Positions 39,072-55,654 of a stretch of DNA of 56,811 nucleotides are shown piece by piece. Numbering within the stretch: the stretch's first letter is position 1; each line of letters opens with the position of its first letter. The position numbers were made by a program, and so were the translations under genes. Source of the stretch: a virus (Duplodnaviria > Heunggongvirae > Uroviricota > Caudoviricetes); the IMG/VR virus record IMGVR_UViG_2698536317_000003. The stretch is one strand, 5' to 3'. The notes under the pieces were generated by a model that was given only the letters and a program-made list of their open reading frames with translations, did no database searches and was not told the DNA's origin.

Positions 39072-39085
39072 AAAAACCACCCCGA

Positions 39086-39262
39086 TTATTTTTGATTCTC
39101 TGTTTCGTTCAGCCTTTCGGCGTGTCCGGCCCTTAGCCAATGTTCTAAGCATTCGTTGCACTCGTTACAGCCTCCTTTCTTCGTGCTGCATACATTGCAC
39201 ATTGCACGCATGACGCTCTCTCGTTCATAGTCGTCATGCCATTGGTAATTATCAAAAGGCAT
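39086..39262 (-). CDS. NinF-like zinc-ribbon protein
   Basis: 58-aa ORF with CNVCS...CNECNEC Cys cluster. Confidence 0.4.
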   Translation of the reverse strand: MPFDNYQWHDDYERESVMRAMCNVCSTKKGGCNECNECLEHWLRAGHAERLNETENQK

Positions 39263-39383
39263 AATGCTCTCTCCTTTTAAGGTGATTTCTACGCATTTCA
39301 GCGCTGCCGGATTTTTAAAGAGCATTTTGCTTGCTTGAAGTATACAAAATGGATACGTGTAAACAAGACGAATAGCGCCATTA

Positions 39384-39399
39384 TGTGATCCACATCACG
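39384..39399. promoter_or_regulatory. CRP-like palindrome TGTGA-N6-TCACG nested in a 29-bp palindrome
   Basis: ccattatgtgatccacatcacgcaatgg read directly (39378-39406). Confidence 0.4.
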
Positions 39400-39421
39400 C
39401 AATGGCGCCATTTTGTAAATT

Positions 39422-40210: not shown

Positions 40211-40710
40211 TTTCTGCCCTCAAACGTGAAATAGCGGCGCATGATGATAGTGATCACCGTTACCGCTGCCATTTTTGAGATGAATTGCATCGCTGATATT
40301 TCCGGCATAAACGCCATAAACGATAGCGTCGGGAAAATTAACGCATCCCCGATGGCTGAAGCTATATTTGCAGGCCAGCGTTTCGAATCAAAATCACCAG
40401 GCAAAACCCGGTAAACGCCGCCAGAAATAAGCGCACCGGAAACAACAGCAACGAATGACGCGATCGCCACCATTCCGGCGTCGTAATTTATCAGCACAGT
40501 GATTGCGCCAGCGGCGGCGCATGTTGTAGCCGACCATTTCAGGCCGCCGTCATATAACAGAAAGTCGCGGATCATCATATTTACACACACTGCGGCTACC
40601 GTAGTGACCGGAATCACCCACGGGCCGCAATGGTTAACAATAAGGTTGATGATCACGAAAACGGCGACATAAACGCAGGCCAGTAACCTGTCAATTGCCA
40701 CCTTTTCCAT
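40207..40710 (-). CDS. Polytopic inner-membrane protein, unknown function
   Basis: Four or more hydrophobic helices; between the two methyltransferase genes. Confidence 0.5.
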   Translation of the reverse strand: MEKVAIDRLLACVYVAVFVIINLIVNHCGPWVIPVTTVAAVCVNMMIRDFLLYDGGLKWSATTCAAAGAITVLINYDAGMVAIASFVAVVSGALISGGVYRVLPGDFDSKRWPANIASAIGDALIFPTLSFMAFMPEISAMQFISKMAAVTVITIIMRRYFTFEGRK

Positions 40711-40714
40711 TTTG

Positions 40715-41176
40715 CTATCCCTCTTCTGACTGATACCCAAAATTCAAATCAAGCAAATCAGTAGCGCAACGACATTGAGGGTTAATCTCTGAAGGAGATA
40801 AGCCATTACAGGATATTATAACTCCATCATTTACCATCCCATCATTAATATTGGCGGCAGTGAACTGATTTTTCTTTTGCTCATTCTCCCGATCATTTAA
40901 TATTTGCTCCGCTTTTAGTGCGCTGTAGCTGATTAAGTCAACCAAAGTATCAGTAGGGTCAGAACCATTAGCCAAAATTGCCTCTAAACGCGCCTCCTTA
41001 AGACAAATCAACAGATCCCATACATCAAGTGGGGTTAAATTTGCGCCCTTCTTAGCGTTGTAAATGGTGGCTATTTTTGGCGCTGATTTTTCTTCTTTTC
41101 TGTCGTAGCCGTTTTGTTTACCTCTTTGCTCTATTGTTTCTGCTGCAAGTCGTAATAAATCTGCTGCACTAGTCAT
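40715..41176 (-). CDS. Hypothetical protein (about 153 aa)
   Basis: ORF between Dam-like gene and membrane protein gene. Confidence 0.35.
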   Translation of the reverse strand: MTSAADLLRLAAETIEQRGKQNGYDRKEEKSAPKIATIYNAKKGANLTPLDVWDLLICLKEARLEAILANGSDPTDTLVDLISYSALKAEQILNDRENEQKKNQFTAANINDGMVNDGVIISCNGLSPSEINPQCRCATDLLDLNFGYQSEEG

Positions 41177-41717
41177 TTTCTGCACCTCTTGCATATAGCT
41201 CTTTACGTGTTATCTGCGTGAAAATACATTCATGTCTGCACCGTGGATGCCAGATCAAAAACAAGCTCCCTTTGTTGTTTCCGCTCACTGGCTTACCAGT
41301 CGCAGCATTTATAAAAGCCAGCCGCCCGCGCGTTATTAATCTGCATTCGTTTGCCGTCTCAACGCCGTTCATAAACCAGCTAACAGAAATGTCAGCGGGC
41401 AATAACATTACGCAACCGATGTGGTTTCGGCTGTGTTCAAGCGCCGCTTTATCAACGAATGGCCCCGGGTTCGAATATGGTGGATTCATCCAGACATACT
41501 CACCAGGCATTGCCACCGCTCCCCACGGATAATGCAGCGTGTCCATTTCTTCGGTTATATATCGCGGGATTAATGCGTTTGCCTTGTTTGCCGCCACGTC
41601 AGCGACAAATTCAAACTCACGATCCATTCCTCTAAAAACTGGTTTAGGTGTCTGCCACAGGTCTTTAATTTCCTTCGGCGTACTGCTGCCTCCAAAATCA
41701 TTTTTCATTATGACCAC
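41169..41717 (-). CDS. Phage DNA N6-adenine methyltransferase (Dam-like)
   Basis: Catalytic NPPY motif in VWMNPPYSNP; size typical of phage Dam family. Confidence 0.8.
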   Translation of the reverse strand: MVIMKNDFGGSSTPKEIKDLWQTPKPVFRGMDREFEFVADVAANKANALIPRYITEEMDTLHYPWGAVAMPGEYVWMNPPYSNPGPFVDKAALEHSRNHIGCVMLLPADISVSWFMNGVETANECRLITRGRLAFINAATGKPVSGNNKGSLFLIWHPRCRHECIFTQITRKELYARGAEND

Positions 41718-41720
41718 CCA

Positions 41721-41972
41721 CTAGAAATAGTCCTGTTCCGTTCCCCAACGGTTGTTCAAATATCCCACCAACCAGATAAAACGCTCAATACTGATTAGTG
41801 GGGCGACCTTGCGATAATGCTTTTCTAATATCAGCCGCGTAGCTTTATCGCTGTAGCCGTTTCTTTCTACCTCCGCTTTGCAGGCAGAAAGCGCTGCGCG
41901 GGCGGCAGCTTTTACGGCATTAAATTGCAGTTCTGACATATTGAACAAAGCCATAGGATCACCATTCATCAC
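41721..41972 (-). CDS. Hypothetical protein (83 aa)
   Basis: ORF in early-left small-gene block. Confidence 0.35.
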   Translation of the reverse strand: MMNGDPMALFNMSELQFNAVKAAARAALSACKAEVERNGYSDKATRLILEKHYRKVAPLISIERFIWLVGYLNNRWGTEQDYF

Positions 41973-42195
41973 CCCAATCAGGCGCTACAGTCCAGCAAAA
42001 ACCAATGAATGCGCTAACAGCCAATAAAGCGCGGGCTGCAAAAAGAATATTCCCAATGTCGTTAAATTCAGGCAGCGACCACGTAATAAACATATCCCCC
42101 AGCATGATAACACCGATAACAGTCAGGGCCGCCAGGAAAACAAAAAGCGTAGCCAAAAGCCACACCCCCAACCAGTTAAAAAAGCTCTTAACCAT
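41959..42195 (-). CDS. Small two-TM membrane protein (78 aa)
   Basis: Two hydrophobic helices. Confidence 0.4.
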   Translation of the reverse strand: MVKSFFNWLGVWLLATLFVFLAALTVIGVIMLGDMFITWSLPEFNDIGNILFAARALLAVSAFIGFCWTVAPDWGDEW

Positions 42196-42196
42196 T

Positions 42197-42400
42197 TTAA
42201 ACCTCGTCTATTACACCGCCTTGCACGCGTTCCTTAATATCCCACACGTGAGGCAAGCATATTTCTTGATAATAGTGATCCGGCCTGCTGCCGAAATACC
42301 ATTTACCATCCATATAAAAATAAACGCCAGAAAAATCTCCCGGCGCTGCTTTTGTTGCTGCTTCTGGAATTTTCCATTCTTTATAGCGTTTATACTTCAT
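42197..42400 (-). CDS. Hypothetical protein (67 aa)
   Basis: ORF in early-left block. Confidence 0.3.
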   Translation of the reverse strand: MKYKRYKEWKIPEAATKAAPGDFSGVYFYMDGKWYFGSRPDHYYQEICLPHVWDIKERVQGGVIDEV

Positions 42401-42581
42401 ACATTTTTACCGTCTGTTTTAGATCTTTTAATGTGCAAGGCATCAAGCGAAAATGCTGAACGCCTTTAATGATGCAGATTAGGTAAATGTCACCGATTGA
42501 GTTGTAGTAATAACATCCGCAATAACCGACACCAGCTAATTTGGCGTTGTCCGGTAACTTATATTCTCCAACGCACTTCAT
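42390..42581 (-). CDS. Hypothetical Cys-rich protein (63 aa)
   Basis: ORF in early-left block. Confidence 0.3.
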   Translation of the reverse strand: MKCVGEYKLPDNAKLAGVGYCGCYYYNSIGDIYLICIIKGVQHFRLMPCTLKDLKQTVKMYEV

Positions 42582-42679
42582 AAATCACCTCATATGGTAT
42601 TCAATAAACCACCTGATAAACAGGCATAAGGCAATAAAACCCCAGCAACAGCACATATAAAACAATGTGTCGTCCATAA

Positions 42680-42898
42680 TTAAGCCTCAATAACACCGTA
42701 ATCAAACGTGCCTAAATACCGTTCGATGCTTACAACCTCAATACCATCAATGCACCGTTTCCACACAGACACCCGGCTTTCATTTTCCCGGAAGTGCATA
42801 TTAGAAAGCACTTCATCGGCTGGATAGCCTTTCCCGGCGACGTAGGCATCGTGACCTACTCCACCCTCAACACAATAAAGCATTAATTCGCGGGCCAT
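42680..42898 (-). CDS. Hypothetical protein (72 aa)
   Basis: Preceded by CRP-like site at 42980-42995. Confidence 0.35.
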   Translation of the reverse strand: MARELMLYCVEGGVGHDAYVAGKGYPADEVLSNMHFRENESRVSVWKRCIDGIEVVSIERYLGTFDYGVIEA

Positions 42899-42998
42899 CT
42901 TGTTTTTCCTCCGCGCCGTAAACCTTTTGATTTCAGTTCACAAAACGGATTTACGATCACAACACAAAATGTATTTCTATGTGATCGCCATCACTATG

Positions 42999-43619
42999 TT
43001 AATGAAGTACGCGTTTTTCAGGTTCTGGCATTAGCTGTGCGTCTTTCCGCGCGTCATTAAGCACAGCTATAGCTACCTGTACACCTAAATCATTTGCGCG
43101 CATATTATTGCCAACCATTTCGCTGTAAAATAATGGCATGATCGCCTTTACTTCTTCCTCTGTGTGACCTTCATCAATACACTTCTGTAACGCTTTAGCC
43201 TCGAATACTTTTTTCATTACGCCGCGCACAGAATACAGCGCAACGCTACCCATATGATTTTCATCTAACGGGAAAATAACAGCACTTCCGAACGCCAGCG
43301 GGTCAATCTCTTCCGGTACTGGTACTCGCCCAAATTCTTCTTCCATTCGTTTTACGAAAGTGAGGCAGAAGACATAACGAGCTACGGCAGTTTTTTCTTC
43401 AGCGTTTAAAGACACATAATCGCGGATCGACGCGTCCATCACAATATCAACAATCTGTAACGCCAGATTCAAATCAGCGTCATACGCACCAGCTTCCATA
43501 TCTTTTAATACTTCGTGATAATCCTTCGTTTCCACTTCATGAAAACTTGCATCTTCAGCATAACGAGTGATTAACATGCCATCGCTGCCGAGTGAATAAG
43601 CTGTTTTGATGTCGTTCAT
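42999..43619 (-). CDS. Hypothetical protein (206 aa)
   Basis: ORF in early-left block. Confidence 0.45.
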   Translation of the reverse strand: MNDIKTAYSLGSDGMLITRYAEDASFHEVETKDYHEVLKDMEAGAYDADLNLALQIVDIVMDASIRDYVSLNAEEKTAVARYVFCLTFVKRMEEEFGRVPVPEEIDPLAFGSAVIFPLDENHMGSVALYSVRGVMKKVFEAKALQKCIDEGHTEEEVKAIMPLFYSEMVGNNMRANDLGVQVAIAVLNDARKDAQLMPEPEKRVLH

Positions 43620-43631
43620 GATATTTATCCT

Positions 43632-43964
43632 TTATAGTGGGTGATGCCATTTCATTTCAGTTTCTGGATTGAACGGGTTTCCTTCACTTGAAAGGAATAA
43701 ATCACGCTCCCGTTTTAGCTCTTCCTGGCTTATTTCTATTTCATCAATCTGACCGAACGATCCAGGCATCATCCGTTTTAAATCAGATAGCGGGCGCATA
43801 AGGCCGCAACCACGTAACAACATGTCTAACGCGAACTGTCTCCGCCCTGCCGCATCATTAAAGCGCCGAGAATAAGGAACAACCACGATCCTGCGCTCGA
43901 ACTCAATAAATAGCGATAGCTTGTTAGTAGCTGAATCATAGCCTTTATGGAATTTAATTTTCAT
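43632..43964 (-). CDS. Hypothetical protein (110 aa)
   Basis: ORF in early-left block. Confidence 0.35.
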   Translation of the reverse strand: MKIKFHKGYDSATNKLSLFIEFERRIVVVPYSRRFNDAAGRRQFALDMLLRGCGLMRPLSDLKRMMPGSFGQIDEIEISQEELKRERDLFLSSEGNPFNPETEMKWHHPL

Positions 43965-44145
43965 TTAACACCTCGACGTATTGCTCAAGATGCCATTTAC
44001 CAACCTCGTCATCTTCCTCATCAAATAATGTTACCTGACCACCTGGCCCAAAAGAAAAGGCAGCTATAATAAATTTATACCCATACCACGTGCGGATCTT
44101 TTCGCCGCCTTTTAAATCTTTAACTTTCACTAATTTTATAGCCAT
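43954..44145 (-). CDS. Hypothetical protein (63 aa)
   Basis: ORF in early-left block. Confidence 0.3.
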   Translation of the reverse strand: MAIKLVKVKDLKGGEKIRTWYGYKFIIAAFSFGPGGQVTLFDEEDDEVGKWHLEQYVEVLNEN

Positions 44146-44411
44146 ACACCGAACATCCCATTCAGTCCGGCGAACAATTTCCGCCAGTGGTTTTCAGCAT
44201 AAGCCCGGAACGGCTTAACGCGAACATTGCGGGCCTTCAGTTCAATATCATCAAAGTAGCGCGGTTCGATGATTGTTCCGTCCAGGTATTTAACCACTAG
44301 CGGGCGCTCTAGATCGTCATACATCTTATTCAGTACAACCAGGCCAGGGTCATCACGATATTCAGGCAACACAACAAGATCACCAGCCTTTGCATCCCAT
44401 GTTTTCATCAC
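44136..44411 (-). CDS. Hypothetical protein (91 aa)
   Basis: ORF in early-left block. Confidence 0.35.
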   Translation of the reverse strand: MMKTWDAKAGDLVVLPEYRDDPGLVVLNKMYDDLERPLVVKYLDGTIIEPRYFDDIELKARNVRVKPFRAYAENHWRKLFAGLNGMFGVWL

Positions 44412-44645
44412 AGCAATCCTCTGAAAATAAAGCTAACCAGCGCAGCAAATGCGCCACAAGAAACAACCACAAACAGGAAGCAAATAATGCAAAACGCGAC
44501 AGTCACAATATCCTTACCGACTTTCATGATTGGCCTCACATGTTAGTAATGAGTTTAATGATCGCTACCGTGATATAAAGAGATACGCTGAGATACAGCA
44601 CGGCGATAGATAAAGCCGCAAGCAATGCGGCAATTTTTGCAAAGC

Positions 44646-44885
44646 TCATTTGCCACCCTCCGCAATTAACTTATCAAGCCATTTGTTATTAGCCAGCCGT
44701 TCTTTGTCACTACCAAAACTGTTTCTGCTTAGAAGCTCCTCTTTTGTTAATTGCGGCCACTTATCCGTCCACCCAGCCGACGTATCGAACTCATACAGAC
44801 CGCCGTCAAAAGTAACAAAGTCATCAGCCGTGTCAGGCACTTCTTTATCAACTTCTTTTTCTTCGATCATGATTTGATACCTCAT
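44646..44885 (-). CDS. Hypothetical acidic protein (79 aa)
   Basis: ORF in early-left block. Confidence 0.35.
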   Translation of the reverse strand: MRYQIMIEEKEVDKEVPDTADDFVTFDGGLYEFDTSAGWTDKWPQLTKEELLSRNSFGSDKERLANNKWLDKLIAEGGK

Positions 44886-45163
44886 TAATCGTTAATGACC
44901 TGGCCCATACGCCCGCGATATTTGCGCATACGTGGATCGACATATTCAGGCCAGTGCATATCCGGTTTTCTTTGCAGTGGGTAAAAACTTGCCTGCCAGT
45001 TGTCGAACCATATTTGTTTTGCGTACAGGTCACTAAATCTTTTTGCCATCCGTTCCGCTGCCGTGCCGCATAAAAAAAGCCCGCGATCGATTTGATCACG
45101 GGCTTCTTTTAATACTTGCTCTTTTGTTCGTGGTTGCGGTGGCGGTTTTAGATAATCACTCAT
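44885..45163 (-). CDS. Hypothetical protein (about 92 aa; start MSDYLKPP)
   Basis: ORF downstream of ssb. Confidence 0.35.
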   Translation of the reverse strand: MSDYLKPPPQPRTKEQVLKEARDQIDRGLFLCGTAAERMAKRFSDLYAKQIWFDNWQASFYPLQRKPDMHWPEYVDPRMRKYRGRMGQVIND

Positions 45164-45179
45164 CGCTAACACATTGATT

Positions 45180-45599
45180 CTAAAAAGGAATATCGTCGTC
45201 AAAGTCCATCGAAGGCGGATTATTCCCGTTATTATTCTGCTGCTGCGGCGGCGCTTTCTGCTGCTGTCCTTGCTGCTGGCCTTGTTGGTTAACATTCATG
45301 AATTCAAATTCGTTAACCGCCACTTCTACCGCAGTCCCCTTCGTGCCGTCGTTCCGGTCATATTGCCGAACATCCAGGCGACCGCTTACCACTATTTTTC
45401 CACCCTTACGGATATGTGGCGCTAATTTTTCCGCACGCTCGCCAAATATCAGGCAAGTGATCCACATTACCCGCTTATTATCACCGTAGCCATTCGTTAC
45501 AGCTAACGGAAAACTACCAATCGCTTTTCCGTTTTGCGTGTAGCGAACTTCCATATCATTCCCGATATTACCGCCCAGTGTGATTGAATTTAAGCTCAT
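45180..45599 (-). CDS. ssb: Single-stranded DNA-binding protein
   Basis: OB-fold-like N-terminus, Gln/Gly-rich linker, C-terminal DDDIPF tail. Confidence 0.9.
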   Translation of the reverse strand: MSLNSITLGGNIGNDMEVRYTQNGKAIGSFPLAVTNGYGDNKRVMWITCLIFGERAEKLAPHIRKGGKIVVSGRLDVRQYDRNDGTKGTAVEVAVNEFEFMNVNQQGQQQGQQQKAPPQQQNNNGNNPPSMDFDDDIPF

Positions 45600-46252
45600 T
45601 AACCGATCTCCCCGTTAAGCTCTTTTAAGCGAATGTCATAAACGTCTTTCGCTTTCTGTTGCTGTTCTGAATCTTTAGGCAGTAGTTTCCAGCACTTCCC
45701 GAAGATCTCGCGTAACTTGTTAGCGTCCTGCGCTTTCGCTGCCGCATCACAGAAACGCGCTAACACCTCATCAGGATTTGGCGGCGCTTTCTGCTGCTGT
45801 GGTTTCTGATTAGGTTGTTGTTTTGGTGGGGTTTTCTGCTGGCGAGGCTGCTGCCCTGTCTGCTTAGCGTATGCGTCAGTATCAGGATCTCGCGCATCGT
45901 CAATACAGAACAATCCGTTCAAAGCATATTTACGCGCGTAACTTGATGTTGCTCCTGTTAACTGGCTTGCGTCCATTCCCTTCTTGCTTTCTTCCTCCCT
46001 GGCGTAAGCCGTTACCGCTATCTCATTCTCACCGTCGCTTAGTGTCGCAGTGGCTTTCACATAATAGCGATTGCCGATCAGGATAATTTCATCACTTACA
46101 GTCAGCGTAATACTTTGAAGCAGTGGTTTGACCGCTTCTAAAATATCCTCCGCCGACCTGTAATTGTATCCGCCGAAATTATTACGCTGATTTTTCGGCG
46201 CGTTCAGCGTTTGCTGAATCGTCCACAGTTTTTTATGTAACTCTGTTTTCAC
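45599..46252 (-). CDS. Erf-family single-strand annealing recombinase
   Basis: GYNYRSAEDILEAV-type N-terminal region; adjacent to ssb. Confidence 0.75.
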   Translation of the reverse strand: MKTELHKKLWTIQQTLNAPKNQRNNFGGYNYRSAEDILEAVKPLLQSITLTVSDEIILIGNRYYVKATATLSDGENEIAVTAYAREEESKKGMDASQLTGATSSYARKYALNGLFCIDDARDPDTDAYAKQTGQQPRQQKTPPKQQPNQKPQQQKAPPNPDEVLARFCDAAAKAQDANKLREIFGKCWKLLPKDSEQQQKAKDVYDIRLKELNGEIG

Positions 46253-46401
46253 TCTTTAATCTCCTTCGCTGTTAACACTATGTATAAGGCTTTATTCGCG
46301 GCGCTCCACATTTCGGCATCGTGAAGCATTTCCGCTACCGCAAGTTTGAATTGAAGCGCCTCGATAACCATAATGTAACCTCCGAATGTTTACATTTTGT
46401 A

Positions 46402-46692
46402 TTAATGGTAACGGACTTTATCCAGGGGTTTCCCCCCTAAATGGCGTGGTTGCGTTGCGTGGTAGTAGCTGCCGCTTTCATTTTCCGTATACCATTTTAC
46501 TGATCCTTTGCGACGTTCTTTAATGCTATTTGGTTTGCACCTTTCCTCGTTTGCAAATCGAATAGCTTTATCCACATTGTCTGTTTTATTAATTGCAGGT
46601 GATGATTTTCTTTCGTTTTCTCTTTTTATCCTTCTGCGTTCCCTGGCGTTCATTTTGCTATCACATTTTCCATACATAATTGTAACGCTCAT
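46402..46692 (-). CDS. Arginine-rich N-like putative antitermination protein
   Basis: First gene of leftward operon; N-terminal ARM-like NARERRRIKRENERK; GGAG RBS; downstream of nut-like site. Confidence 0.4.
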   Translation of the reverse strand: MSVTIMYGKCDSKMNARERRRIKRENERKSSPAINKTDNVDKAIRFANEERCKPNSIKERRKGSVKWYTENESGSYYHATQPRHLGGKPLDKVRYH

Positions 46693-46748
46693 AATCTGAT
46701 CTCCGTATATCCTTGATGAAACTTAATAAAAAATCATCTTCGTTAATT

Positions 46749-46786
46749 GCCGCACTTCCAGCGGCTGACCAGATTTTTAATGAGCG
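46749..46786 (-). promoter_or_regulatory. nutL-like site (boxA CGCTCATTAAAAAT plus boxB-like hairpin)
   Basis: Minus-strand reading CGCTCATTAAAAATCTGGTCA-GCCGC-TGGAAGT-GCGGC. Confidence 0.4.
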
Positions 46787-47041
46787 GCTTAACATCTTTC
46801 AACTAATCCCGCAATCATCGCCGTTCCCGGCGTGACCTTGCTCACTCCAAGCAAGCTGACTCGTCGCCTTGCGTGCGGTTTCGTGGGGGATGTAACGCTT
46901 TAAACACCCCATGCGCCTTGTTATCAGTGCCGCTTTCGGTCCCCCCATTGGGGAGTTACTCCACGGTTGACAAGGTGTTAAGCCTGATTTTTAAAGTGCC
47001 AGGAAGCCGCTTTTGTTACCTGCGCCCTTCCTTTGACTCGC

Positions 47042-47070
47042 AATATACGCCCCGTAAAACACCGAGTCAA
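47042..47070 (-). promoter_or_regulatory. Sigma70-like leftward early promoter (pL-like)
   Basis: Minus strand TTGACT-17 nt-TATATT; flanked by 9-bp inverted repeat TTGACTCG/CGAGTCAA and a CCATTTTGTATAC motif. Confidence 0.5.
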
Positions 47071-47160
47071 TCCATTTTGTATACTTTTTTAAAACATTTT
47101 ATATGTTATTGATATTTAAACAATAAATAACGTTTTCTGTTTACGTTTTGGTGCTTTCAT

Positions 47161-47188
47161 GGCAAAGAAAAGCCGCCATCCGGCGGCT
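47161..47188 (-). terminator. Rho-independent terminator downstream of repressor gene
   Basis: AGCCGCC-GGAT-GGCGGCT hairpin followed by TTTCTTTGCC on minus strand. Confidence 0.55.
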
Positions 47189-47193
47189 AATGT

Positions 47194-47841
47194 TTATGGC
47201 AGGTTTACGATCTTCGCATCAACTACCACGCCTATGATTTTTGATTCTGGATTCATAGGGATTGGCGGATACAGCGGATTGAGCGAACGTAAAAGCCTTT
47301 GACCTCCATCAATAATCAACTGTTTAAACGTCGGTATCTGCCCTTCCTCAAGCTGGGCTATAACCAGTTTGCCGTCAATAGCTGGCGCGTGCGGGTCCAC
47401 GAGTATCATCGTCCCCGCCGGGATGCTCAACCCCTGCGGCGCGTTCATTGATTCACCTTTGGCAACCAGCCAGTAACTATCATCTGAACAAATAACGCTA
47501 GTCGTAACGTGTGGTAATGCTGATCGCCTTGTGTCATCCATATTGTTTACTGTATCCTTCCAGTCAATAACCGGGTAACTACCTAAATCACGCGGCGGTG
47601 CGGCCTGAAGTGTATTAGAAACAGAATCATCAATGACCATACCATCATGTGTAACAGTGAACTGCCGACGACCAAGCGCCCGCATAATCCGCGCAATATC
47701 TTCAAGATTTGGCTCGCGGCGACCGTTCAGCCAGTGTGACAGGCCGCCTTTAGTTATCCCCATGAGATCTGCGAGTGAATCCTGACTCATGCCCTGCGCC
47801 CGCATGAGCTGCTTTGCTAAGTCATACCATTTTGTTTTCAT
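47194..47841 (-). CDS. CI-like repressor (HTH_XRE N-terminus, LexA/S24 peptidase-like C-terminus)
   Basis: N-terminal HTH (SQDSLADLMGITKGGLSHWLNG) and C-terminal GESM...K autocleavage-type domain. Confidence 0.85.
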   Translation of the reverse strand: MKTKWYDLAKQLMRAQGMSQDSLADLMGITKGGLSHWLNGRREPNLEDIARIMRALGRRQFTVTHDGMVIDDSVSNTLQAAPPRDLGSYPVIDWKDTVNNMDDTRRSALPHVTTSVICSDDSYWLVAKGESMNAPQGLSIPAGTMILVDPHAPAIDGKLVIAQLEEGQIPTFKQLIIDGGQRLLRSLNPLYPPIPMNPESKIIGVVVDAKIVNLP

Positions 47842-48146
47842 GTCGCTACCCTATAACCTCAAAAAGTTTGATGCAAGTCACAAAACGTGTATTTTAAGCC
47901 TTGATCTTAAAATTCCATTTTGTAAACTTGCAGACAAGGTAAGGCCATACTTGCAAAGACGCAAGGAAAAAGATAACGGAAGGCACAAAAAGGCACATAC
48001 CTTAAGCTCTTTAAAAATCCGGTGTCGCTGCGAAGCGAAAAACAAATATCACGCAACGGCGGGATCTGTTGAGCGGTCAGTCACTGCTATCTAATGCTAA
48101 TGGGATGCCCGCCCGCGCGTTCATTTTAACCATAGGAGAAAATACA
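47842..48146. promoter_or_regulatory. Divergent immunity control region (OR-like) with nutR-like element
   Basis: CTTGCA-type palindromes, CCATTTTGTAAAC motif (47915-47927), boxA-like GCTCTTTAAAAAT with GNRA hairpin TCGCT-GCGA-AGCGA (48001-48029). Confidence 0.4.
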
Positions 48147-48401
48147 ATGAGCATGAACATGATTAGCGAAGTATGGAAAGTAAAACTTAACAGCCCGATT
48201 CAAAAACTGGTCTTAATGGCTCTGGCTGAAAAGGCAGATAACCGCCGTCACGTCATGGTATCACGACAAGAAATTGCAAAAATGTGTGAACTTCCTGTTC
48301 ATACGGTACATGATGCCTTCGCCGCGTTAATGCATAAAGGGTTTGTTTGTCGTCTTGATGCGTTCAGTGATGTCTATGTAGTGATGTTACCGGAGGAATG
48401 A
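48147..48401 (+). CDS. First rightward early gene; small HTH regulator (Cro/CII-position)
   Basis: AGGAG RBS; 84 aa; stop 3 nt before replication gene start. Confidence 0.4.
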   Translation: MSMNMISEVWKVKLNSPIQKLVLMALAEKADNRRHVMVSRQEIAKMCELPVHTVHDAFAALMHKGFVCRLDAFSDVYVVMLPEE

Positions 48402-48404
48402 TCT

Positions 48405-49451
48405 ATGAAGTGGTTTAAGCATGATAGCGATGCGAACCGCGATGAAAAACTTCAAAACGTCTTGCTTGATTATGGCCTGGAAGGGTACGGGCTTTATTGG
48501 TATTGCCTCGAACTAATAACTTATGACGTAGATCAGCACAATCTAACTTTTGACCTACGACATGACGCGAGAATCATTGCGCGAAACGTCGGATCGACTG
48601 AAAAACGTATAGAAGAAATGATGAAATACTTCATCGAAATTGGTTTGTTTGAATGTTCTCAAGGCCACATAACTTGTTTAAAGTTATTGAAAAGGCTGGA
48701 CCAATCAATGACTTCTAAAAGCGCATACAGGGCAGCCATAAACACAGCGAAGGAGCAATTAAAATTAGAAAAGTTAATCAATCCAACACAAAAAGGTCAT
48801 GATAGGGTCATGACCGGGTCAGGAAAGGGTCATGAATTAGAATTAGAAGTAGAAGAAGAAAGAGAAGAAGAAAAGAAAAATATAAAAAGAAAAGAAGTCA
48901 ATCAGGACGGTGATTTCCAGGTAAGCGAGGCGGCTTATCGTTGCTTAGCCTTCTACAACGACAAGGCTGGATGCAAATGTCGTGATGCTAAGCCATTCAT
49001 CGAACTACTGACAGAAACAAAAACACGTAAAGCGTATACGGAGGATGAGATCACATTAGTGATTGAGTGGGCTTTAACGCAATGGCGTAGCCGTGGCGGA
49101 ACACCTAAACCTATCAACATTTGCCGGGTAACTAAATTTGACGGGTATCTTGCTGATGCTGAACAATGGCGCAATCTGTCAGTTACTGTAAACGCTGCCG
49201 ATGTGGTAAATGAGTTTAACATCACGTTTGATGGCCTGTTGCCACCTGCTGAACTGGATCGGGATCTTGAACGTAAAATATATGCGTTCACTGACTACCT
49301 GAAAGACAAAAGCATTAACGGATTTATCGCCTACTTTGAAGCATTCAAGAGCAAGGCTTCAGACTTTTACTTCGGCGATGGCTTCACAGCGACACTTGAT
49401 TTCCTGCTTAAACCAAAAACGCTACGCGATACACGCGCAGGCGCTCTTTGA
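48405..49451 (+). CDS. Phage replisome organiser / replication initiation protein (DUF4373-like N-terminus)
   Basis: N-terminal MKWFKHDSDANRDEKL...GLEGYGLYWYCLE signature; acidic linker. Confidence 0.6.
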   Translation: MKWFKHDSDANRDEKLQNVLLDYGLEGYGLYWYCLELITYDVDQHNLTFDLRHDARIIARNVGSTEKRIEEMMKYFIEIGLFECSQGHITCLKLLKRLDQSMTSKSAYRAAINTAKEQLKLEKLINPTQKGHDRVMTGSGKGHELELEVEEEREEEKKNIKRKEVNQDGDFQVSEAAYRCLAFYNDKAGCKCRDAKPFIELLTETKTRKAYTEDEITLVIEWALTQWRSRGGTPKPINICRVTKFDGYLADAEQWRNLSVTVNAADVVNEFNITFDGLLPPAELDRDLERKIYAFTDYLKDKSINGFIAYFEAFKSKASDFYFGDGFTATLDFLLKPKTLRDTRAGAL

Positions 49452-49818
49452 CCAACCACGATCCACAAAAACCCAAAATAACCCGCAAAACAAGCTCGCC
49501 AGCGAGATAAATCGCATGTGGTGCTACACTTGCTTACCTTTTTGCGATTAGCTCGTTATAGAGCGTTACAGAGAGGATTTCAAAAATGGACGGTAAACAC
49601 GTTTTTGCCCTGGTCTTTGCCATCGCTGCGGCAATCGCTGTTAACGTCGCTTTGTTCGGCGGTTTGTTCCTTCTAGTCAATCCATAACCTACCCACCATT
49701 CTGTAAATCAAAAATTAGCCACCTGAGAGCGTCTATAACGCAATAAGACACTGCAACCTGTGCAAACGGGTTACGCGGTGGAATTTTGCGTTGTAGAGCG
49801 TTTTACGGAGAAAATACA

Positions 49819-50559
49819 ATGTCTGATTTAATGGTTTTTGATGTCGATAGCGAAGTATTAATGATTTCATCGCGTGAAATAGCAGAAGCAACAGGCAAGG
49901 ATCATTCTTCTGTGGTTGTGCGTGATATTAAAAACATGCTGATCGATTTAGGGTTTACTGAGCATGATTTTTATCCTGCAAAAATGCAGGATTATGAATT
50001 TATAGGGTTTTTGTTTAAGTACAAGCACTACAACGGTCGCAACGTCATTGATGAGGTTTTGCTAAATAAAGAGCTAACAATGTGCTTGATCACTGGCTAT
50101 GACGTTAAGCAACGCATGAAGGTAATTAAACGCGTTAAAGAGTTGGAGGAGGCGCAACACAAACTAGCTTTGCCGGATTTCACTGATCCGGTTGCGGCAG
50201 CCCGCGCATGGGCGGATGAGGTAGAGCAAAAATTATTAGTTAAGCAAGAAAATGAACGGCTTACACTGGTTAACAAACAGCTTGCGCCAAAAGCTGCTGT
50301 ATGTGACGCGATAGTCAAAAACGATATGCACCGCACGGCTTCAGAGGTAGCTAAACCGCTGGGAATGTCAGCCGTAAAATTAAACAGAAAACTTTCGGCG
50401 GTTGGTGTTTATGATCTTCGCTGTCGCCGCCGTGTATTCAGTCAGTGGTTTATTGATGAGGGCTACGGTGAAATGAGGGTAACTCACGATGGATATGAGC
50501 AGGCTGTATTCACTGCTAAAGGACAAGTATGGATTACTGAGCTTTTAACTTGTAACTAA
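49819..50559 (+). CDS. Antirepressor (Rha-like N-terminus, KilAC-like C-terminus)
   Basis: About 246-aa ORF with recalled Rha/KilAC-type sequence features. Confidence 0.6.
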   Translation: MSDLMVFDVDSEVLMISSREIAEATGKDHSSVVVRDIKNMLIDLGFTEHDFYPAKMQDYEFIGFLFKYKHYNGRNVIDEVLLNKELTMCLITGYDVKQRMKVIKRVKELEEAQHKLALPDFTDPVAAARAWADEVEQKLLVKQENERLTLVNKQLAPKAAVCDAIVKNDMHRTASEVAKPLGMSAVKLNRKLSAVGVYDLRCRRRVFSQWFIDEGYGEMRVTHDGYEQAVFTAKGQVWITELLTCN

Positions 50560-50593
50560 GTATACAATTTGTTATTCGTGAGGAAATGACACT

Positions 50594-51712
50594 ATGTCAC
50601 AAAGAAAAATCAGCGATGAGCAATTGATCGCTGAATATAACAACGGTTTAACGTACAAGCAGATCGCTGAAAAATATGGCATGTCAAAACGCAACGTCGA
50701 GCGGCTAGGCGCAAAACTGGCGAAACGCGGTTTAATATCCACGCGTCGCGCACCGGGTTTTGGCGTCAATGCTGAGTCATTGCTCGTCGATAAGGATGGC
50801 AATGTGATCATGCGCTGGATTAAAACAGCCCGTGACCGCGACGAAATGGAACAGTTAATGGAAGCGGCCCGCGACGCTTTCACGGATGAAATACCACGCG
50901 CGGAGGCTGTGCCAGTGCCTGAAATTGATTTTCAAAAAAGCCTAGCCCTTTATCCGGTGTTTGATCTGCATATCGGGGCGCTTGCTCATAAAGCTGAATG
51001 CGGCGAGAGCTACGACACTGGGATCGCTGAGCGCGTGTTGAATGACTTCTTTGACTACGCTGTTGGCGCTGCTCCGATGTCTGAAAAAGCCGTACTGCTC
51101 CTCGGTGGCGATCTGCTTCATTCTGACGGTATGGTCCCGGTGACGCCAATAAGTGGGCACATTCTTGATCAAGATAGTCGCTACGCAAAACTTGTTTATG
51201 TGGCGATCCGGTCTGTCCGGCGGGCGGTAGGTAAAATGTTGTTAAATCATAAGGATGTTGAAATCCAGGTGTTATCAGGCAATCACGATCAGTCTGGTAT
51301 GATTTGGCTACGTGCGGCGCTGGCGGCTTTTTACGAAGATGAACCGCGCGTGACGGTTGATGTGTCACCTGCTATCGTCCACCACACGCAGTACGGTAAA
51401 ACATTTCTTGCTTACCACCACGGGCACACTATCAAAAAGCCAGAGAATTTATTGGCTGCTTGCATCTCTGACTGGCGGGATGATTTCGGGAAGTCAGTTG
51501 CTGTTTACGCCCACTGCGGGCACTGGCATCATCAACGGCTGATTGAATCATCGTTGGGCGTTGTTGAGTATCACGGCACGTTAGCCGGTAAAGACGCTTA
51601 CTCAACTAATGGCGGCTGGCGGTCACGTCGTATGGCGGCGGTGATTATTTACAGCCAGGATCATGGGGAGATCGGGCGCTTTGTTTATTACCCTGAATAC
51701 TCCATTTTGTAA
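50594..51712 (+). CDS. HTH-domain protein fused to calcineurin-like metallophosphoesterase domain
   Basis: N-terminal HTH (LTYKQIAEKYGMSKRNVERL); phosphoesterase motifs DLHIG, GGDLLHSDG, GNHDQ, GHWHH. Confidence 0.55.
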   Translation: MSQRKISDEQLIAEYNNGLTYKQIAEKYGMSKRNVERLGAKLAKRGLISTRRAPGFGVNAESLLVDKDGNVIMRWIKTARDRDEMEQLMEAARDAFTDEIPRAEAVPVPEIDFQKSLALYPVFDLHIGALAHKAECGESYDTGIAERVLNDFFDYAVGAAPMSEKAVLLLGGDLLHSDGMVPVTPISGHILDQDSRYAKLVYVAIRSVRRAVGKMLLNHKDVEIQVLSGNHDQSGMIWLRAALAAFYEDEPRVTVDVSPAIVHHTQYGKTFLAYHHGHTIKKPENLLAACISDWRDDFGKSVAVYAHCGHWHHQRLIESSLGVVEYHGTLAGKDAYSTNGGWRSRRMAAVIIYSQDHGEIGRFVYYPEYSIL

Positions 51713-51730
51713 ACCGGAGGTAATGACATA

Positions 51731-53146
51731 ATGGTAACTGAGCAAATGAACTCACTACGGCAGGAACGTGAAGCGTCAGTTATCGGCGGGCTGCTGTTAG
51801 GCGGCCTAACTCCTAACGCACAAGATGTTCTCGCCACTCTTGATCCTGAAGTGTTCACGATTCCGCTGTATAAACGTGCGTTTGAAGTTATCCGGGCGCA
51901 AGCCAGAAACAGAAATCTTATCGACGCGTTATTGGTTGGCGATGAGATTGGCAATGAAAACTTTGTACCGCTAATGCAAACGGCGCGATCGTGCCCGTCT
52001 GCTGCCAACCTGAAGGGATACGCACAGCTACTACGTGAAGAGCACCAGCGGCGGCAGATGTTGGAACTCATCGACGATATGCGCTACAAACTGGAAACGG
52101 GGACGCTTGAGGTCGTCAAAGAGACGATGAAAGACTTTGATTCCCGGTATTCAAAATTGAAGGTAACGAAAGACAAGATCATTCCGGTGTTGTTGCGCGA
52201 TGCGGTACAGGAATACACGGAGGTGTTAAGCAAACGCATGGAATGCGGTGTCAATTCTGACAACATCAAAACAGGGATAGAACCACTCGACGAAATGTTA
52301 GGCGGCATTAACGCTACTGATCTGGTGCTTCTCGCCGGGCGCCCTGGGTCTGGTAAATCTGCGTTGGCGCTGGCAATTGCCCGCGCTGCTGCTGAACGCC
52401 CTTACCCTGGCAGCAAGGATCAGCGGGTTGGCGTTTTGTTCTTCACGCTTGAAATGTCACTCGATCAGATGACTGAACGCGCTATAGCTGGCGCTGGTAA
52501 TTTATCAACCGACTGTCTGCGTAATCCGGTAAAACTTGATGATGAGGGGTGGGCGCATGTTGGTCAGGGTATGAGCGCACTTGCTAATCTTGACGTGTGG
52601 ATCGTTGACGCATCGCAGTTAACGGTTGAGGAAATACGCGCCACAACGGAACGGATGAAACAGGAGCATCCCAACCTGGGTATGGTAATGATTGACTACA
52701 TCGGGTTGATGAAGCTGGCTAAGGCTGAACGTCATGATCTCGCCGTAGGGCAATTATCATGGTCGTTGAAGATGATGGCGAAAGAATTGCGCGTACCGGT
52801 GTTGGCGCTGGCGCAATTATCCCGCCGCGTTGAGGAACGACCGAACAAGCGTCCTAACAATTCTGATCTGCGCGATTCCGGTAATCTTGAGCAGGACGCT
52901 GACAGGATAATCATGGTATACCGCGATGGCTACTACGATGAGCAGTCTGTAGCCCGCGAATATATGGAAATCATTGTATCTAAAAACCGTCACGGCAAAT
53001 CTGGCACTGTTTACCAGCGGTTTGATGACAACGGCAATATCTTACCATGCGACCAGGCCCGCGCGGCTGCGGCGTGTATTCAGTCTATGAATCATCGTAC
53101 AAGCAGATTTAACCAACGAAACAACCAGAATAACGCATCCTTTTAA
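51731..53146 (+). CDS. Replicative DNA helicase (DnaB-like)
   Basis: Walker A GRPGSGKS, SDLRDSG and RecA-fold motifs; 471 aa. Confidence 0.9.
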   Translation: MVTEQMNSLRQEREASVIGGLLLGGLTPNAQDVLATLDPEVFTIPLYKRAFEVIRAQARNRNLIDALLVGDEIGNENFVPLMQTARSCPSAANLKGYAQLLREEHQRRQMLELIDDMRYKLETGTLEVVKETMKDFDSRYSKLKVTKDKIIPVLLRDAVQEYTEVLSKRMECGVNSDNIKTGIEPLDEMLGGINATDLVLLAGRPGSGKSALALAIARAAAERPYPGSKDQRVGVLFFTLEMSLDQMTERAIAGAGNLSTDCLRNPVKLDDEGWAHVGQGMSALANLDVWIVDASQLTVEEIRATTERMKQEHPNLGMVMIDYIGLMKLAKAERHDLAVGQLSWSLKMMAKELRVPVLALAQLSRRVEERPNKRPNNSDLRDSGNLEQDADRIIMVYRDGYYDEQSVAREYMEIIVSKNRHGKSGTVYQRFDDNGNILPCDQARAAAACIQSMNHRTSRFNQRNNQNNASF

Positions 53147-53222
53147 TCAATATGAGCAAACGGCTTACCAGAAAGTTTACCGCTTTCTGGTGGCTGTTAT
53201 CGCGTTTAAAGCGAGGCTGAAA

Positions 53223-53750
53223 ATGAAAACTTCATACCAACAACAAATAATTGATTTTTTAAATGACGCTGTTATTTCAGGTGAGGGAACGATAGTTAAA
53301 TCTATTCCTGGGCCGGAAGGTGAAATAATTTGCGCTTTGGATGCTTTAGTTTCTGATGGCGTTATTATCAAAGTAGATCTAAATAGTAAAAGATTATCAT
53401 ATTGCTTGAAGTCAGTAAGAGAAATGGCGATAAGGGATATAATCCCTTTGTTTTCAAATAGTAGCGGGTATTTTTCAGCGGAAGATGTTAAAAATGAATT
53501 GAATATTAATATAAACAAAGGAAAGGTCGGGAGAATATTGCGGATGTTAGGAAGTGAGAACCTATTAACTGTTAATAAGTTTGACGGTAAATATTTTTTC
53601 AGAAACGCGCGTTTTTATGGTTATTCAAATGTTATCGCATTTAATTTTAGTAACTTATTAAACGAATACCGTAAAAATAACGGCCTGCTACCGGATAAAC
53701 CAATATTTGAGATCGAAAAACTTAACGGCGAAACGGGGTTGGAATTATGA
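53223..53750 (+). CDS. AT-rich hypothetical protein (about 175 aa), possible winged-helix; candidate moron
   Basis: Visibly AT-rich relative to flanks; ORF begins MKTSYQQQIIDFLN. Confidence 0.5.
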   Translation: MKTSYQQQIIDFLNDAVISGEGTIVKSIPGPEGEIICALDALVSDGVIIKVDLNSKRLSYCLKSVREMAIRDIIPLFSNSSGYFSAEDVKNELNININKGKVGRILRMLGSENLLTVNKFDGKYFFRNARFYGYSNVIAFNFSNLLNEYRKNNGLLPDKPIFEIEKLNGETGLEL

Positions 53751-53953
53751 GACGGGTAATTTTTTATTCAGTTGAAACGTTTGTCGACGATACGCGCGTT
53801 TATTATCCGTGGGAAGTATACGACGCAAAGGTGTATACACCGCCACTGATGCGGAAATATAAACACGTAAAATTTAACCGGGTTTTCGTGCCAATGCGCG
53901 ATGCATTACGGGCGCTGCGTGGGGAATTAAGAAACACAATGCGGATTGTGTAA
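53747..53953 (+). CDS. Hypothetical protein (68 aa)
   Basis: ORF overlapping stop of previous gene. Confidence 0.35.
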   Translation: MRRVIFYSVETFVDDTRVYYPWEVYDAKVYTPPLMRKYKHVKFNRVFVPMRDALRALRGELRNTMRIV

Positions 53954-53962
53954 GGGGGAATC

Positions 53963-54190
53963 ATGAACAAGGATTTAGAATTGACCGTGGAGGATTTAAG
54001 CACGATCGCGGAATACAAGCGCGGCGGTGATCCTGATAAACCTGTTACGGTTGATATGAAATATTTAAAAGGCGCTTTTATGACTTCTTCAAGATTGATA
54101 AGTCTTAAAGCAATTATAAAGGCGCGCTGGGAAAGTTGGCAGGAATACAAAGCGAAAAATAAGGTGAAAAGAAATAATGCGGCAAATTAG
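53963..54190 (+). CDS. Hypothetical protein (75 aa)
   Basis: GGGGGAATC RBS; upstream of ninB. Confidence 0.4.
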   Translation: MNKDLELTVEDLSTIAEYKRGGDPDKPVTVDMKYLKGAFMTSSRLISLKAIIKARWESWQEYKAKNKVKRNNAAN

Positions 54191-54605
54191 ATTTGAGATA
54201 GTCAACGACGCCGTGAAAGAAAACGCTATCAGGCAGATAAGAGAGATCCAGCCTGATAGCAAAAGCCCGCTGATAATTACCATCCAGGAGAAAACCCGCT
54301 CGCTAAGCCAAAACGCGTTGCTTTGGGCGCTGTTAACCGACATTAGCGATCAGGTTAATTGGTACGGTAAGAAGCTGTCGCCGGAAGACTGGAAAGCGGT
54401 ATTTACTGCCGGGCTTAAGAAATATGGCGTCGTCCCTAACCTGGATAAATCCGGCTTTGTTGTATTGGGGACATCAACCAGCCGGATGAGTAAATCAGAA
54501 TTCAGTGAACTAATCGAGCTGATCTACTCGTTCGGCGCTGAACATGATGTTCAATGGTCTGGCGATACGAAATTAAACGAGGAATTCATAAAACGCTGGG
54601 GGTAA
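54177..54605 (+). CDS. ninB: Recombination protein NinB
   Basis: Strong similarity to recalled lambda NinB (ITIQEKTRSLSQNALLWALLTDIS...VVPNLDKSGFVVLGTSTSRMSKSEF). Confidence 0.85.
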   Translation: MRQIRFEIVNDAVKENAIRQIREIQPDSKSPLIITIQEKTRSLSQNALLWALLTDISDQVNWYGKKLSPEDWKAVFTAGLKKYGVVPNLDKSGFVVLGTSTSRMSKSEFSELIELIYSFGAEHDVQWSGDTKLNEEFIKRWG

Positions 54606-54607
54606 TA

Positions 54608-54784
54608 ATGGCGCGTTATTACATGGCTAAACCTACAGGAATTTTGTATAAGGTTGATGGCGAATATGTTTATTACTTCCACAACCAGGCGCGGGAGTGG
54701 CGATTGTGTCACGCGCACTTCAAGCACGAAATAGAAAATCACCCTGAATACTTTATCAAAGTTGACAATGTAACGGTGGCGTAA
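54608..54784 (+). CDS. Hypothetical protein (58 aa)
   Basis: ATG 54608 immediately after ninB stop. Confidence 0.4.
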   Translation: MARYYMAKPTGILYKVDGEYVYYFHNQAREWRLCHAHFKHEIENHPEYFIKVDNVTVA

Positions 54785-54785
54785 T

Positions 54786-55436
54786 ATGGCAAATAAAACA
54801 CCTCGTGCAATAGGCACAATGTTCCACCGCTTCCGTGGTGATATTCAGCCTTTTGAAGTAACCACGTTTTCAAGTTATTACGATTTTGGGACGGAGTATT
54901 ACGCCGGATCTAAGGTAGGCGGTGAATCTTATACGCTGATGGCTAATACGTGGCGCTTTGTGCGTTACTCTGAAAAGGATGGTGACGGTATGAATAAAGA
55001 AAGTGAAATCATTGATGAATTAATCGAAGATGAGCGCCATGATTGCGATGCGCCGGAAGTTACGGAATGGAAACCAGGAGAAAAGCCGCCGTGCGGCGTG
55101 TGGCTTGATTGTATTGGATTAGCAAGTGATAGAGTGATTGATGTCGTTAAGTTTTTCTACCTGGGCGATAAGTGGTCTATTGCTCACAGTAAGTTAGAAA
55201 CGGGTATAGAAACACCGATTGCATGGAAACAATACTCATACCGCATTCACATTGACCCGAAAGAAAAAGCAATGACACGAATTGCGTTTGCGCTGGCTGT
55301 TGAGGTTATTGGTGGAGATGCGGCAAAAGAGATTAACTTTAACCGCGACAACGAATTTTCGCGCGATTGGCGCAATATGGCAAAAGCCATTATTAATGGC
55401 GATATTCCTTTTACTAATTACAATGGTGATGAGTAA
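54786..55436 (+). CDS. Hypothetical protein (216 aa)
   Basis: ORF tightly coupled to flanking genes. Confidence 0.5.
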   Translation: MANKTPRAIGTMFHRFRGDIQPFEVTTFSSYYDFGTEYYAGSKVGGESYTLMANTWRFVRYSEKDGDGMNKESEIIDELIEDERHDCDAPEVTEWKPGEKPPCGVWLDCIGLASDRVIDVVKFFYLGDKWSIAHSKLETGIETPIAWKQYSYRIHIDPKEKAMTRIAFALAVEVIGGDAAKEINFNRDNEFSRDWRNMAKAIINGDIPFTNYNGDE

Positions 55437-55654
55437 TGGATAAGATCGGGACAATACTTATTAACCGTGAGCAAGTGCAAAAAATGTTAGGCGGGCTTAG
55501 CAAGTCCGCCTTTTTTAAGCTCGTTAAAAAATGGAAAGAAGCGGGAACTCCTTTCCCTGAACCTGTAAAGGGGATGCCAGCATTAAAGCGCGGGGGATCT
55601 CTTTACCGTTATCAGGACGTTATTTCATTTTGTAAATCGATGGGCTTCATGTAG
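55436..55654 (+). CDS. Excisionase-like / small DNA-binding protein
   Basis: 72-aa ORF adjacent to and converging on the integrase gene. Confidence 0.45.
   Translation: MDKIGTILINREQVQKMLGGLSKSAFFKLVKKWKEAGTPFPEPVKGMPALKRGGSLYRYQDVISFCKSMGFM

Follow-up and report, generated by a model that had tools for sequence, protein, structure and literature searches.

A helix-turn-helix metallophosphoesterase of the T1 gp16 type linked to dnaB in the replication operon of a temperate coliphage

Recent work has identified two families of phage metallophosphoesterases (MPE) as DNases that either destroy the DNA of the host or are required by the phage for replication. Gp48 of mycobacteriophage A10ZJ24 has DNase and phosphodiesterase activity and is toxic; it breaks down the genome of the host, and replication of the phage DNA in M. 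tuberculosis depends on it (PMC12287305). The A1 protein of phage T5 is essential and sufficient for degradation of the host chromosome and acts with a separate DNA-binding protein, A2 (bioRxiv 10.64898/2026.04.02.716235). Another phage MPE, in which a helix-turn-helix (HTH) domain precedes the catalytic domain (HTH-MPE), is encoded in the virus sequence IMGVR_UViG_2698536317_000003 of IMG/VR, whose 56,811 nucleotides are referred to below as the window. Its architecture is already known as that of a common phage family with inferred annotation only, and the window gene, carried by a temperate coliphage, is orthologous to gp16 of coliphage T1. Its fixed linkage to dnaB is the one feature peculiar to this locus. 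HTH-MPE is probably, though this is put forward with considerable reserve, a stand-alone, metal-dependent, Rad50-independent DNA nuclease that is anchored on DNA through its HTH and serves phage DNA metabolism.

The HTH-MPE coding sequence (CDS; 50594..51712, plus strand) comprises 372 amino acids (aa) and a stop codon, begins with ATG and ends with TAA. A Shine-Dalgarno sequence, GAGGAA (50580..50585, plus strand), can be read 8 nt 5' of the ATG. Over its early region the window shows 100% identity with a prophage of E. coli O89m:H10 strain MIN12, in which the Prokaryotic Genome Annotation Pipeline (PGAP) predicts the same CDS as WP_053888207.1, 'hypothetical protein'. An earlier note on this DNA, made from the sequence without database searches, had given exactly this open reading frame (ORF). 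Minus-strand ORFs within the gene (50572-50883, 50880-51368 and others) are treated as shadow ORFs; PGAP calls none of them.

Membership of the family is established by full-length matches. Residues 4-368 align with positions 2-387 of the 390 in the PHROG 704 profile ('DNA repair exonuclease', E 2.1e-140), and T1 gp16 (ST16, YP_003929.1) is 57% identical over 375 aligned positions (E 2e-158). Proteins of PHROG 704 are annotated either as 'DNA repair exonuclease' or as 'putative phosphoesterase'. When about 50,700 phage genomes are searched by tblastn, 2,038 records prove to contain a relative (1,940 near full length), i.e., about 4% of sequenced phage genomes. An exhaustive HMMER search gives 4,326 clusters (50% identity) at E up to 1e-3 and 923 at E up to 1e-30; nearly all have a length of 370-440 aa. 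The earlier note could not match the architecture to a standard replication protein, a difficulty that disappears once T1 gp16 is recognised as its orthologue and the family as one carried by more than 2,000 sequenced phages.

The family is represented in Drexlerviridae (T1-like coliphages, Klebsiella Webervirus), Salmonella Jerseyvirus, Chi-like Casjensviridae, Vibrio phages including the N4-like Schitoviridae, and phages of Campylobacter, Flavobacterium and Rhodobacter. It occurs mostly in lytic phages, and a scan of species-representative bacterial genomes yields 5 loci only. Among Drexlerviridae, 508 of 522 carry the gene as persistent, directly upstream of the holin-endolysin-spanin cassette (PMC13164509, 2026). 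The nearest relatives of the window protein (89-97% identity) belong to the temperate mEp phages (mEp013, mEp010) and to many E. coli prophages. The mEp phages constitute the 'mEpimmI' group of Nus-dependent non-lambdoid coliphages (PMC11893012), in the description of which the HTH-MPE gene is not discussed. Homologues with 55-65% identity, apparently T1-like, also stand under unlikely host names, in a contig of a Nitratidesulfovibrio liaohensis assembly (L010) and in a record named Streptococcus phage MBBL140 (P0051); these are probably contaminating T1-like phage sequence or wrongly assigned hosts.

The catalytic MPE domain covers aa 114-368 (50933..51697, plus strand, as are all coordinates of this paragraph), with no capping domain after it. 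All five ordered motifs of the superfamily (DxH, GD, GNH[DE], H, GHxH) are present. They are motif I, DLHIG (aa 124-128, 50963..50977), with D124 and H126; motif II, GDLLHSD (aa 172-178, 51107..51127), with D173; motif III, GNHD (aa 229-232, 51278..51289), with N230 and H231; motif IV, HHGH (aa 275-278, 51416..51427), with H276; and motif V, GHWHH (aa 309-313, 51518..51532), with H312. Every motif residue is invariant in 26 close relatives. In 68 relatives with 29-56% identity D124, H126, G128, G172, D173, T184, N230, H231, H276, G277, G309 and H312 are likewise invariant, so that motif I holds in both alignments, and H176, D178, D232, H278 and H310 are conserved at a level of at least 90%. 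Such conservation is far beyond chance. Since the catalytic residues are invariant across the 68 relatives, HTH-MPE should be an intact enzyme, and the alignments and the predicted structure would exclude a degenerate, non-catalytic scaffold. The full motif set reported in the earlier note is thus present and intact, with two amendments: the motif written there as 'GDxxD' is really GDxxH-x-D, and motif IV was missing from the list. The sequences DLHIG, GGDLLH and GNHD presumably resemble motif variants of Mre11/SbcD.

The Metallophos models of Pfam, PF00149 and PF12850, do not match the window protein even at E up to 0.1; among the 68 relatives, at E up to 0.01, PF00149 is matched by 13 and PF12850 by 10. 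The family is too divergent for these models. Searches of Pfam and NCBIfam with the window protein alone return no catalytic domain and only a sub-threshold HTH. A sequence search of the PDB gives HTH noise only, and the family profile performs no better.

In the AlphaFold2 model (mean predicted local distance difference test, pLDDT, 75; predicted template modelling score, pTM, 0.69) the window protein has the MPE beta-sandwich, and every motif directly follows a beta-strand, as in the MPE fold. In a Foldseek comparison with the PDB, M. jannaschii Mre11 ranks first (E 6e-7, TM 0.40-0.47). The predicted fold is nearest to SbcD, Mre11, PolD-DP1 and a small archaeal phosphodiesterase, and the longest structural alignments (185-200 residues) are those to the nuclease clade. 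With such fold neighbours the catalytic domain may be described as a putative two-metal phosphoesterase of nuclease-like kind. The protein ends at aa 372, straight after the last core strands of the model (348-365). Profile and structure searches, recommended in the earlier note, were productive with PHROG 704 and Foldseek and gave no catalytic match in Pfam or NCBIfam. The note had suggested a nuclease or phosphatase role; for an HTH-MPE fusion with intact motifs inside a replication operon, nuclease or phosphodiesterase chemistry is a sensible suggestion.

The N-terminal part of the protein contains a three-helix HTH DNA-binding domain (aa 8-44; 50615..50725, plus strand), modelled as helices 8-16, 21-28 and 32-44 with pLDDT 70-86. 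For the window protein alone, Pfam matches of this domain are sub-threshold (Rrf2, Sigma70_r4_2, HTH_Crp_2 and others, E about 1e-3). The HTH is clear in several of the 68 diverse relatives, which match Sigma70_r4_2 (1.5e-9), GerE (2.4e-8) and also HTH_8, HTH_23 and HTH_28 (about 1e-5 to 1e-6); the family profile, over its N-terminal 60 positions, matches the GerE structure. The modelled bundle, the matches in relatives and the GerE match of the profile make the HTH, already recognised in the earlier note, a real feature and one of the family as a whole. A beta-hairpin (aa 58-78) and a helix (aa 82-99), encoded at 50765..50890 on the plus strand, form a family-specific N-terminal extension of the catalytic core, in which G69 and W75 are nearly invariant. 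Alignments with distant homologues begin at about aa 50-70.

As a stand-alone nuclease, HTH-MPE would be transcribed together with the early replication genes. The HTH domain would tether the enzyme to DNA, and the MPE domain would cleave DNA phosphodiester bonds, as an exo- or endonuclease, with no need of a Rad50/SbcC partner. The HTH is conserved family-wide, and the neighbouring genes always belong to DNA or nucleotide metabolism. Neither a RecE/lambda-Exo-type exonuclease nor a Rad50/SbcC gene is found in the prophage among the window ORFs and in the PGAP annotation. Precedents for phage MPE nucleases that stand alone are T5 A1 and A10ZJ24 gp48, which belong to families not homologous to HTH-MPE. 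Two roles could be served by such an enzyme. The first is the processing of ends or structures for recombination-dependent or late replication, suggested because the prophage has Erf and SSB but no exonuclease of the RecE/lambda-Exo type. The second is the breakdown of host DNA for nucleotide supply and host shut-off, which fits the frequent neighbours polynucleotide kinase (PNK), deoxynucleoside monophosphate (dNMP) kinase and dNMP phosphatase.

Several points weigh against the nuclease reading. A nuclease degrading host DNA is less obviously useful to a temperate phage. There is no significant sequence-profile similarity to SbcD (T. maritima SbcD, E 0.45; E. coli SbcD, hhalign probability 2%, with only GNHD aligned), and the capping domain of the Mre11 type is absent. 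The confidence of the AlphaFold2 model is moderate, as its mean pLDDT indicates; the loops of lowest confidence (132-140, 179-195, 334-343) carry the family-invariant T184, D192, D194, R196, D334 and G341 and probably define the substrate. As an annotation, 'DNA repair exonuclease' goes back to transfer on the basis of remote homology, and no experimental (biochemical or genetic) study of any family member was found in the literature. The Metis paper and the 'conserved folds' paper, which were also considered, deal with other metallophosphatases.

The neighbourhoods of the gene in other phages bear on both the nuclease reading and its alternatives. In T1 and Webervirus the order is SNF2-type helicase, endonuclease, Dam, small ORFs, MPE, HNH or PNK (not in all cases) and lysis genes, and many Drexlerviridae possess neighbouring genes for polynucleotide kinase and dNMP kinase (PMC13164509). 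At one locus with an MPE 71% identical to that of the window (L051) a DUF3987 helicase, a small ORF and the MPE gene are followed by a primase on the opposite strand, beyond which HNH, SNF2 helicase, ExoVIII, Erf and SSB genes are located. Within this locus (2539-5712) the MPE gene thus stands two genes 3' of the DUF3987-type helicase (phrog_2373); helicases of this type are also annotated in T1 (ST9) and in GH-K3 (GHK3_12), across the lysis cassette from the MPE gene. In the prophage of Luteibacter sp. E-22 (L013) the order is primase, junction resolvase, MazZ-like domain protein, MPE, endolysin, spanin and terminase. The gene just 5' of MPE in this prophage (L013 6432-6854) encodes an N-terminal domain of dATP/dGTP diphosphohydrolase (PF18909, MazZ-like), which hints at nucleotide-pool manipulation beside the MPE gene. 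In Jerseyvirus and a Vibrio phage an HNH gene follows MPE, amid tail, lysis or head genes. The thread common to these contexts is DNA and nucleotide metabolism, not DnaB.

HNH genes directly 3' of the HTH-MPE gene recur in unrelated phage lineages (L042 8016-8624, also L048 and L052; L098, from T1, 11029-11511; L005 7171-7671; L006 7208-7717) and possibly encode homing endonucleases. At L042, the sole locus inspected in this respect, the C-terminus of the MPE from about aa 300 is a variant of the mEp010 type, as if this conserved gene had undergone co-conversion associated with homing.

The nucleotide-pool neighbours would also suit a phosphodiesterase acting on nucleotides or other small molecules, a reading that has a modest chance of being correct. 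Such an enzyme could act by destroying immune signals made of cyclic or linear nucleotides or by altering the nucleotide pools, and its HTH could serve for autoregulation or localisation. It would agree with the minimal, MJ0936-like MPE core lacking a nuclease capping domain, and with the range of neighbours observed: PNK/phosphatase, nucleoside triphosphate hydrolase, dNMP phosphatase, phosphatase, MazZ-like domain and dNMP kinase. However, a small-molecule enzyme would hardly be expected to conserve a DNA-binding HTH at its N-terminus, and the longest structural alignments lead to the nuclease clade. The gene is moreover persistent (core) in Drexlerviridae, unlike typical accessory anti-defence genes. 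None of the PADLOC families matches HTH-MPE at E up to 0.01, which speaks against this reading as well; the idea of a prophage defence gene was dropped for the same reason.

As the earlier note had observed, the HTH-MPE gene lies directly upstream of, and nearly abuts, a gene for a DnaB-like helicase. The latter (51731..53146, plus strand; phrog_19) encodes a DnaB-family replicative helicase matching Pfam DnaB_C (8e-76) and the DnaB N-terminal domain (5e-12); its start is separated from the HTH-MPE stop by an 18-nt gap and is preceded by its own GGAGG site. The linkage was assessed by tblastn of the window proteins against all fetched loci, a DnaB homologue being accepted at E up to 1e-5. In all 41 mEpimmI-type loci MPE is followed by dnaB, both genes being 89-100% identical to the window copies, while the elements around them, namely the initiator and the antirepressor slot on the upstream side and the ORF on the downstream side, are highly variable or absent. 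Both genes lie in a block of higher GC content (0.49-0.54 vs 0.35-0.45 in the flanks; window 50800-53200). The constant adjacency, the variable flanks and the shared GC block characterise MPE and dnaB as a co-inherited cassette of the mEpimmI lineage. The search detects no DnaB homologue within roughly 7 kb on either side of the gene at about 40 T1-like loci, none in the complete genome (49 kb) of the T1-like Klebsiella phage GH-K3, and none at the Jerseyvirus, Vibrio, Ruegeria and Xanthomonadales loci or at L005-L013. The adjacency to dnaB is thereby shown to be specific to the mEpimmI lineage. Even there, an ORF of the HNH type (202 aa) is inserted between MPE and dnaB in 3 of the 41 loci, so that tight coupling of the two genes is not required.

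It is rather doubtful that HTH-MPE is a replisome- or origin-associated nuclease for the initiation or restart of replication, working with the hexameric replicative helicase of the phage (DnaB here, a DUF3987 helicase in one T1-like lineage). This variant of a nuclease would nick or process DNA to create an entry or priming structure for helicase-driven replication; alternatively, it would enable the switch to recombination-dependent or rolling-circle replication. If real, it would establish a novel class among phage replication factors and account for the core status of the gene in Drexlerviridae.

Still less likely, HTH-MPE could be a DNA-binding regulator with the MPE domain as a sensor or accessory part, controlling, for instance, the early-to-late transition or the lysis switch. 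Its HTH is of the sigma-70 region 4, LuxR-GerE or Fis type, and the position directly before the lysis cassette in Drexlerviridae, with the same arrangement in the Luteibacter prophage, would suit such a function. In T1, however, a rho-independent terminator is annotated between gp16 and the lysis genes, which gives the position of gp16 the look of an operon boundary. In the window a long distance lies between the gene and those for lysis, and a Q-like antiterminator is encoded elsewhere (36646-37365). The context differs again in Jerseyvirus and N4-like phages, and the invariant catalytic residues favour an enzymatic function.

It is very improbable that HTH-MPE serves the adjacent DnaB as a helicase loader or as a scaffold of the replisome, comparable with the inactivated MPE-fold B-subunits of eukaryotic polymerases. 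The earlier note had assigned the gene to the slot of a helicase loader or primase, and the 18-nt distance, the common GC block and the adjacency kept in all 41 mEpimmI-type loci despite changing neighbours can be cited for this. The assignment proves to be positional only. No loader family (lambda P, DnaC/IstB AAA+, SPP1 G39P, DciA-like and others) and no primase is matched by the window protein in Pfam, PHROG or NCBIfam, and most family members come from phages in which no DnaB was found (about 7 kb on either side at some 40 T1-like loci, and the whole of GH-K3). An HNH gene can split the pair, and the catalytic residues are invariant, unlike those of inactivated scaffolds. Replication modules of the P22 type (gp18/gp12) work without a separate loader. 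In addition, the role of initiator and organiser in the operon is already filled by a pair of genes at its head (48069..49451, plus strand; Pfam and PHROG matches, PGAP). The loader reading is thus unlikely because the thread of the contexts is not DnaB, no loader or primase family is matched and an organiser pair is present. Homology to a known loader combined with degenerate motifs, named in the earlier note as the result that would overturn its proposal, was not found; the loader idea fails on these other grounds.

The least probable candidate is a protein Ser/Thr phosphatase of the PPP family, such as the lambda NinI protein phosphatase that gives lambdoid phages an enzyme of the same MPE superfamily and fold: HTH-MPE has DLHIG, GDLLHSD and GNHD instead of the PPP signatures GDxHG, GDxVDRG and GNHE, and Pfam and NCBIfam give no PPP match.

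The other genes of the right operon can be described as follows. The first member of the initiator pair is a small HTH protein (48069-48401, PGAP start 48147, plus strand), and the second is a Lin1244-N/O-like replisome organiser (48405-49451, plus strand). The initiator thus looks split: the small MarR/winged-HTH protein resembles the N-termini of initiators (phrog_4617), and 4 nt after it begins the Lin1244-N protein, whose C-terminal part is like O-like initiators (phrog_428, phrog_345). Between the O-like initiator and the MPE gene there is a variable slot, occupied in the window by a Rha/KilAC antirepressor gene (49786..50559, plus strand); in sister phages this slot is empty or holds variants of 26-100% identity. 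Just 3' of dnaB, an ORF of 186 aa (53190-53750) has a GC content of 0.345 and is hypervariable, with 34-100% identity among sister phages. It has no PADLOC match and weak Pfam matches only, and may be a moron or accessory gene.

The layout of the prophage, with a minus-strand operon (36646-47841) and a plus-strand operon (48069-55654), is unusual for a lambdoid-looking one. In the right operon there are only replication genes, NinB and a small number of short ORFs, and it continues into the integrase gene. Its left counterpart comprises Erf, SSB, two methyltransferases, NinG, HNH, RusA and the Q-like antiterminator, after which the lysis, terminase, head and tail genes are located. Such a two-operon layout fits the mEpimmI group (PMC11893012). 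In the MIN12 prophage (L100 26000-27370; approximately window 25264-26655) PGAP names the gene in the portal position 'anti-CBASS protein Acb1 family protein', which could reflect a fusion of portal and Acb1 or an artefact of annotation.

The function of the HTH-MPE family is a real but modest question. The value of the window gene is that it points to a very large phage protein family that is core in T1-like phages. Proof that the T1 gp16 type acts likewise as a DNase would close a gap, both for classical T1 and for many therapeutic phages of Klebsiella, Salmonella and E. coli. The gene is well accessible to genetics in the temperate mEpimmI phages, such as mEp013 with E. coli K-12 as host, where its linkage to dnaB is tight.

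Among the known systems, archaeal PolD DP1 and the eukaryotic B-subunits have an OB domain and a cognate polymerase, neither of which occurs in the HTH-MPE phage; the B-subunits have lost the catalytic residues, whereas the HTH-MPE family retains them. Mre11/SbcD shares the catalytic fold and the motif order and is among the best structural matches. It differs in that HTH-MPE has no capping domain and no gene for a Rad50/SbcC partner and possesses an extra HTH. Given these differences and the lack of profile similarity, HTH-MPE would work like Mre11/SbcD without being a member of that family.

T5 A1 resembles HTH-MPE as a predicted phage metallophosphatase acting without a Rad50 partner; the DNA-binding module is separate (A2) in T5 and fused in HTH-MPE. 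In contrast to HTH-MPE, A1 has 556 aa, is encoded by a pre-early gene and also takes part in second-step DNA transfer; A1 matches phrog_1745 only, and hhalign gives a probability of 0.7% for its alignment with HTH-MPE. The MPEs of cluster A mycobacteriophages (Bxb1 gp47, L5 gp54, A10ZJ24 gp48) form another sequence family, PHROG 221. Alignment of Bxb1 gp47 (phrog_221, not 704) with HTH-MPE has an hhalign probability of 12% and extends over 41 columns covering motifs IV-V only. Proteins of the gp47 type have no N-terminal HTH because their catalytic motifs begin at residue 10, and Bxb1 gp47 also moonlights as a directionality factor of the serine integrase. Placing HTH-MPE with T5 A1, Bxb1 gp47 or E. 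coli SbcD was rejected, as hhalign finds only isolated motifs in common.

The closest counterpart is T1 gp16, which has the same length, the same order of HTH, hairpin-helix and MPE domain, and all of the motifs. It closes the early operon just upstream of the lysis cassette, where no DnaB gene is found, whereas the window gene belongs to the replication operon of a temperate phage and stands directly upstream of dnaB.

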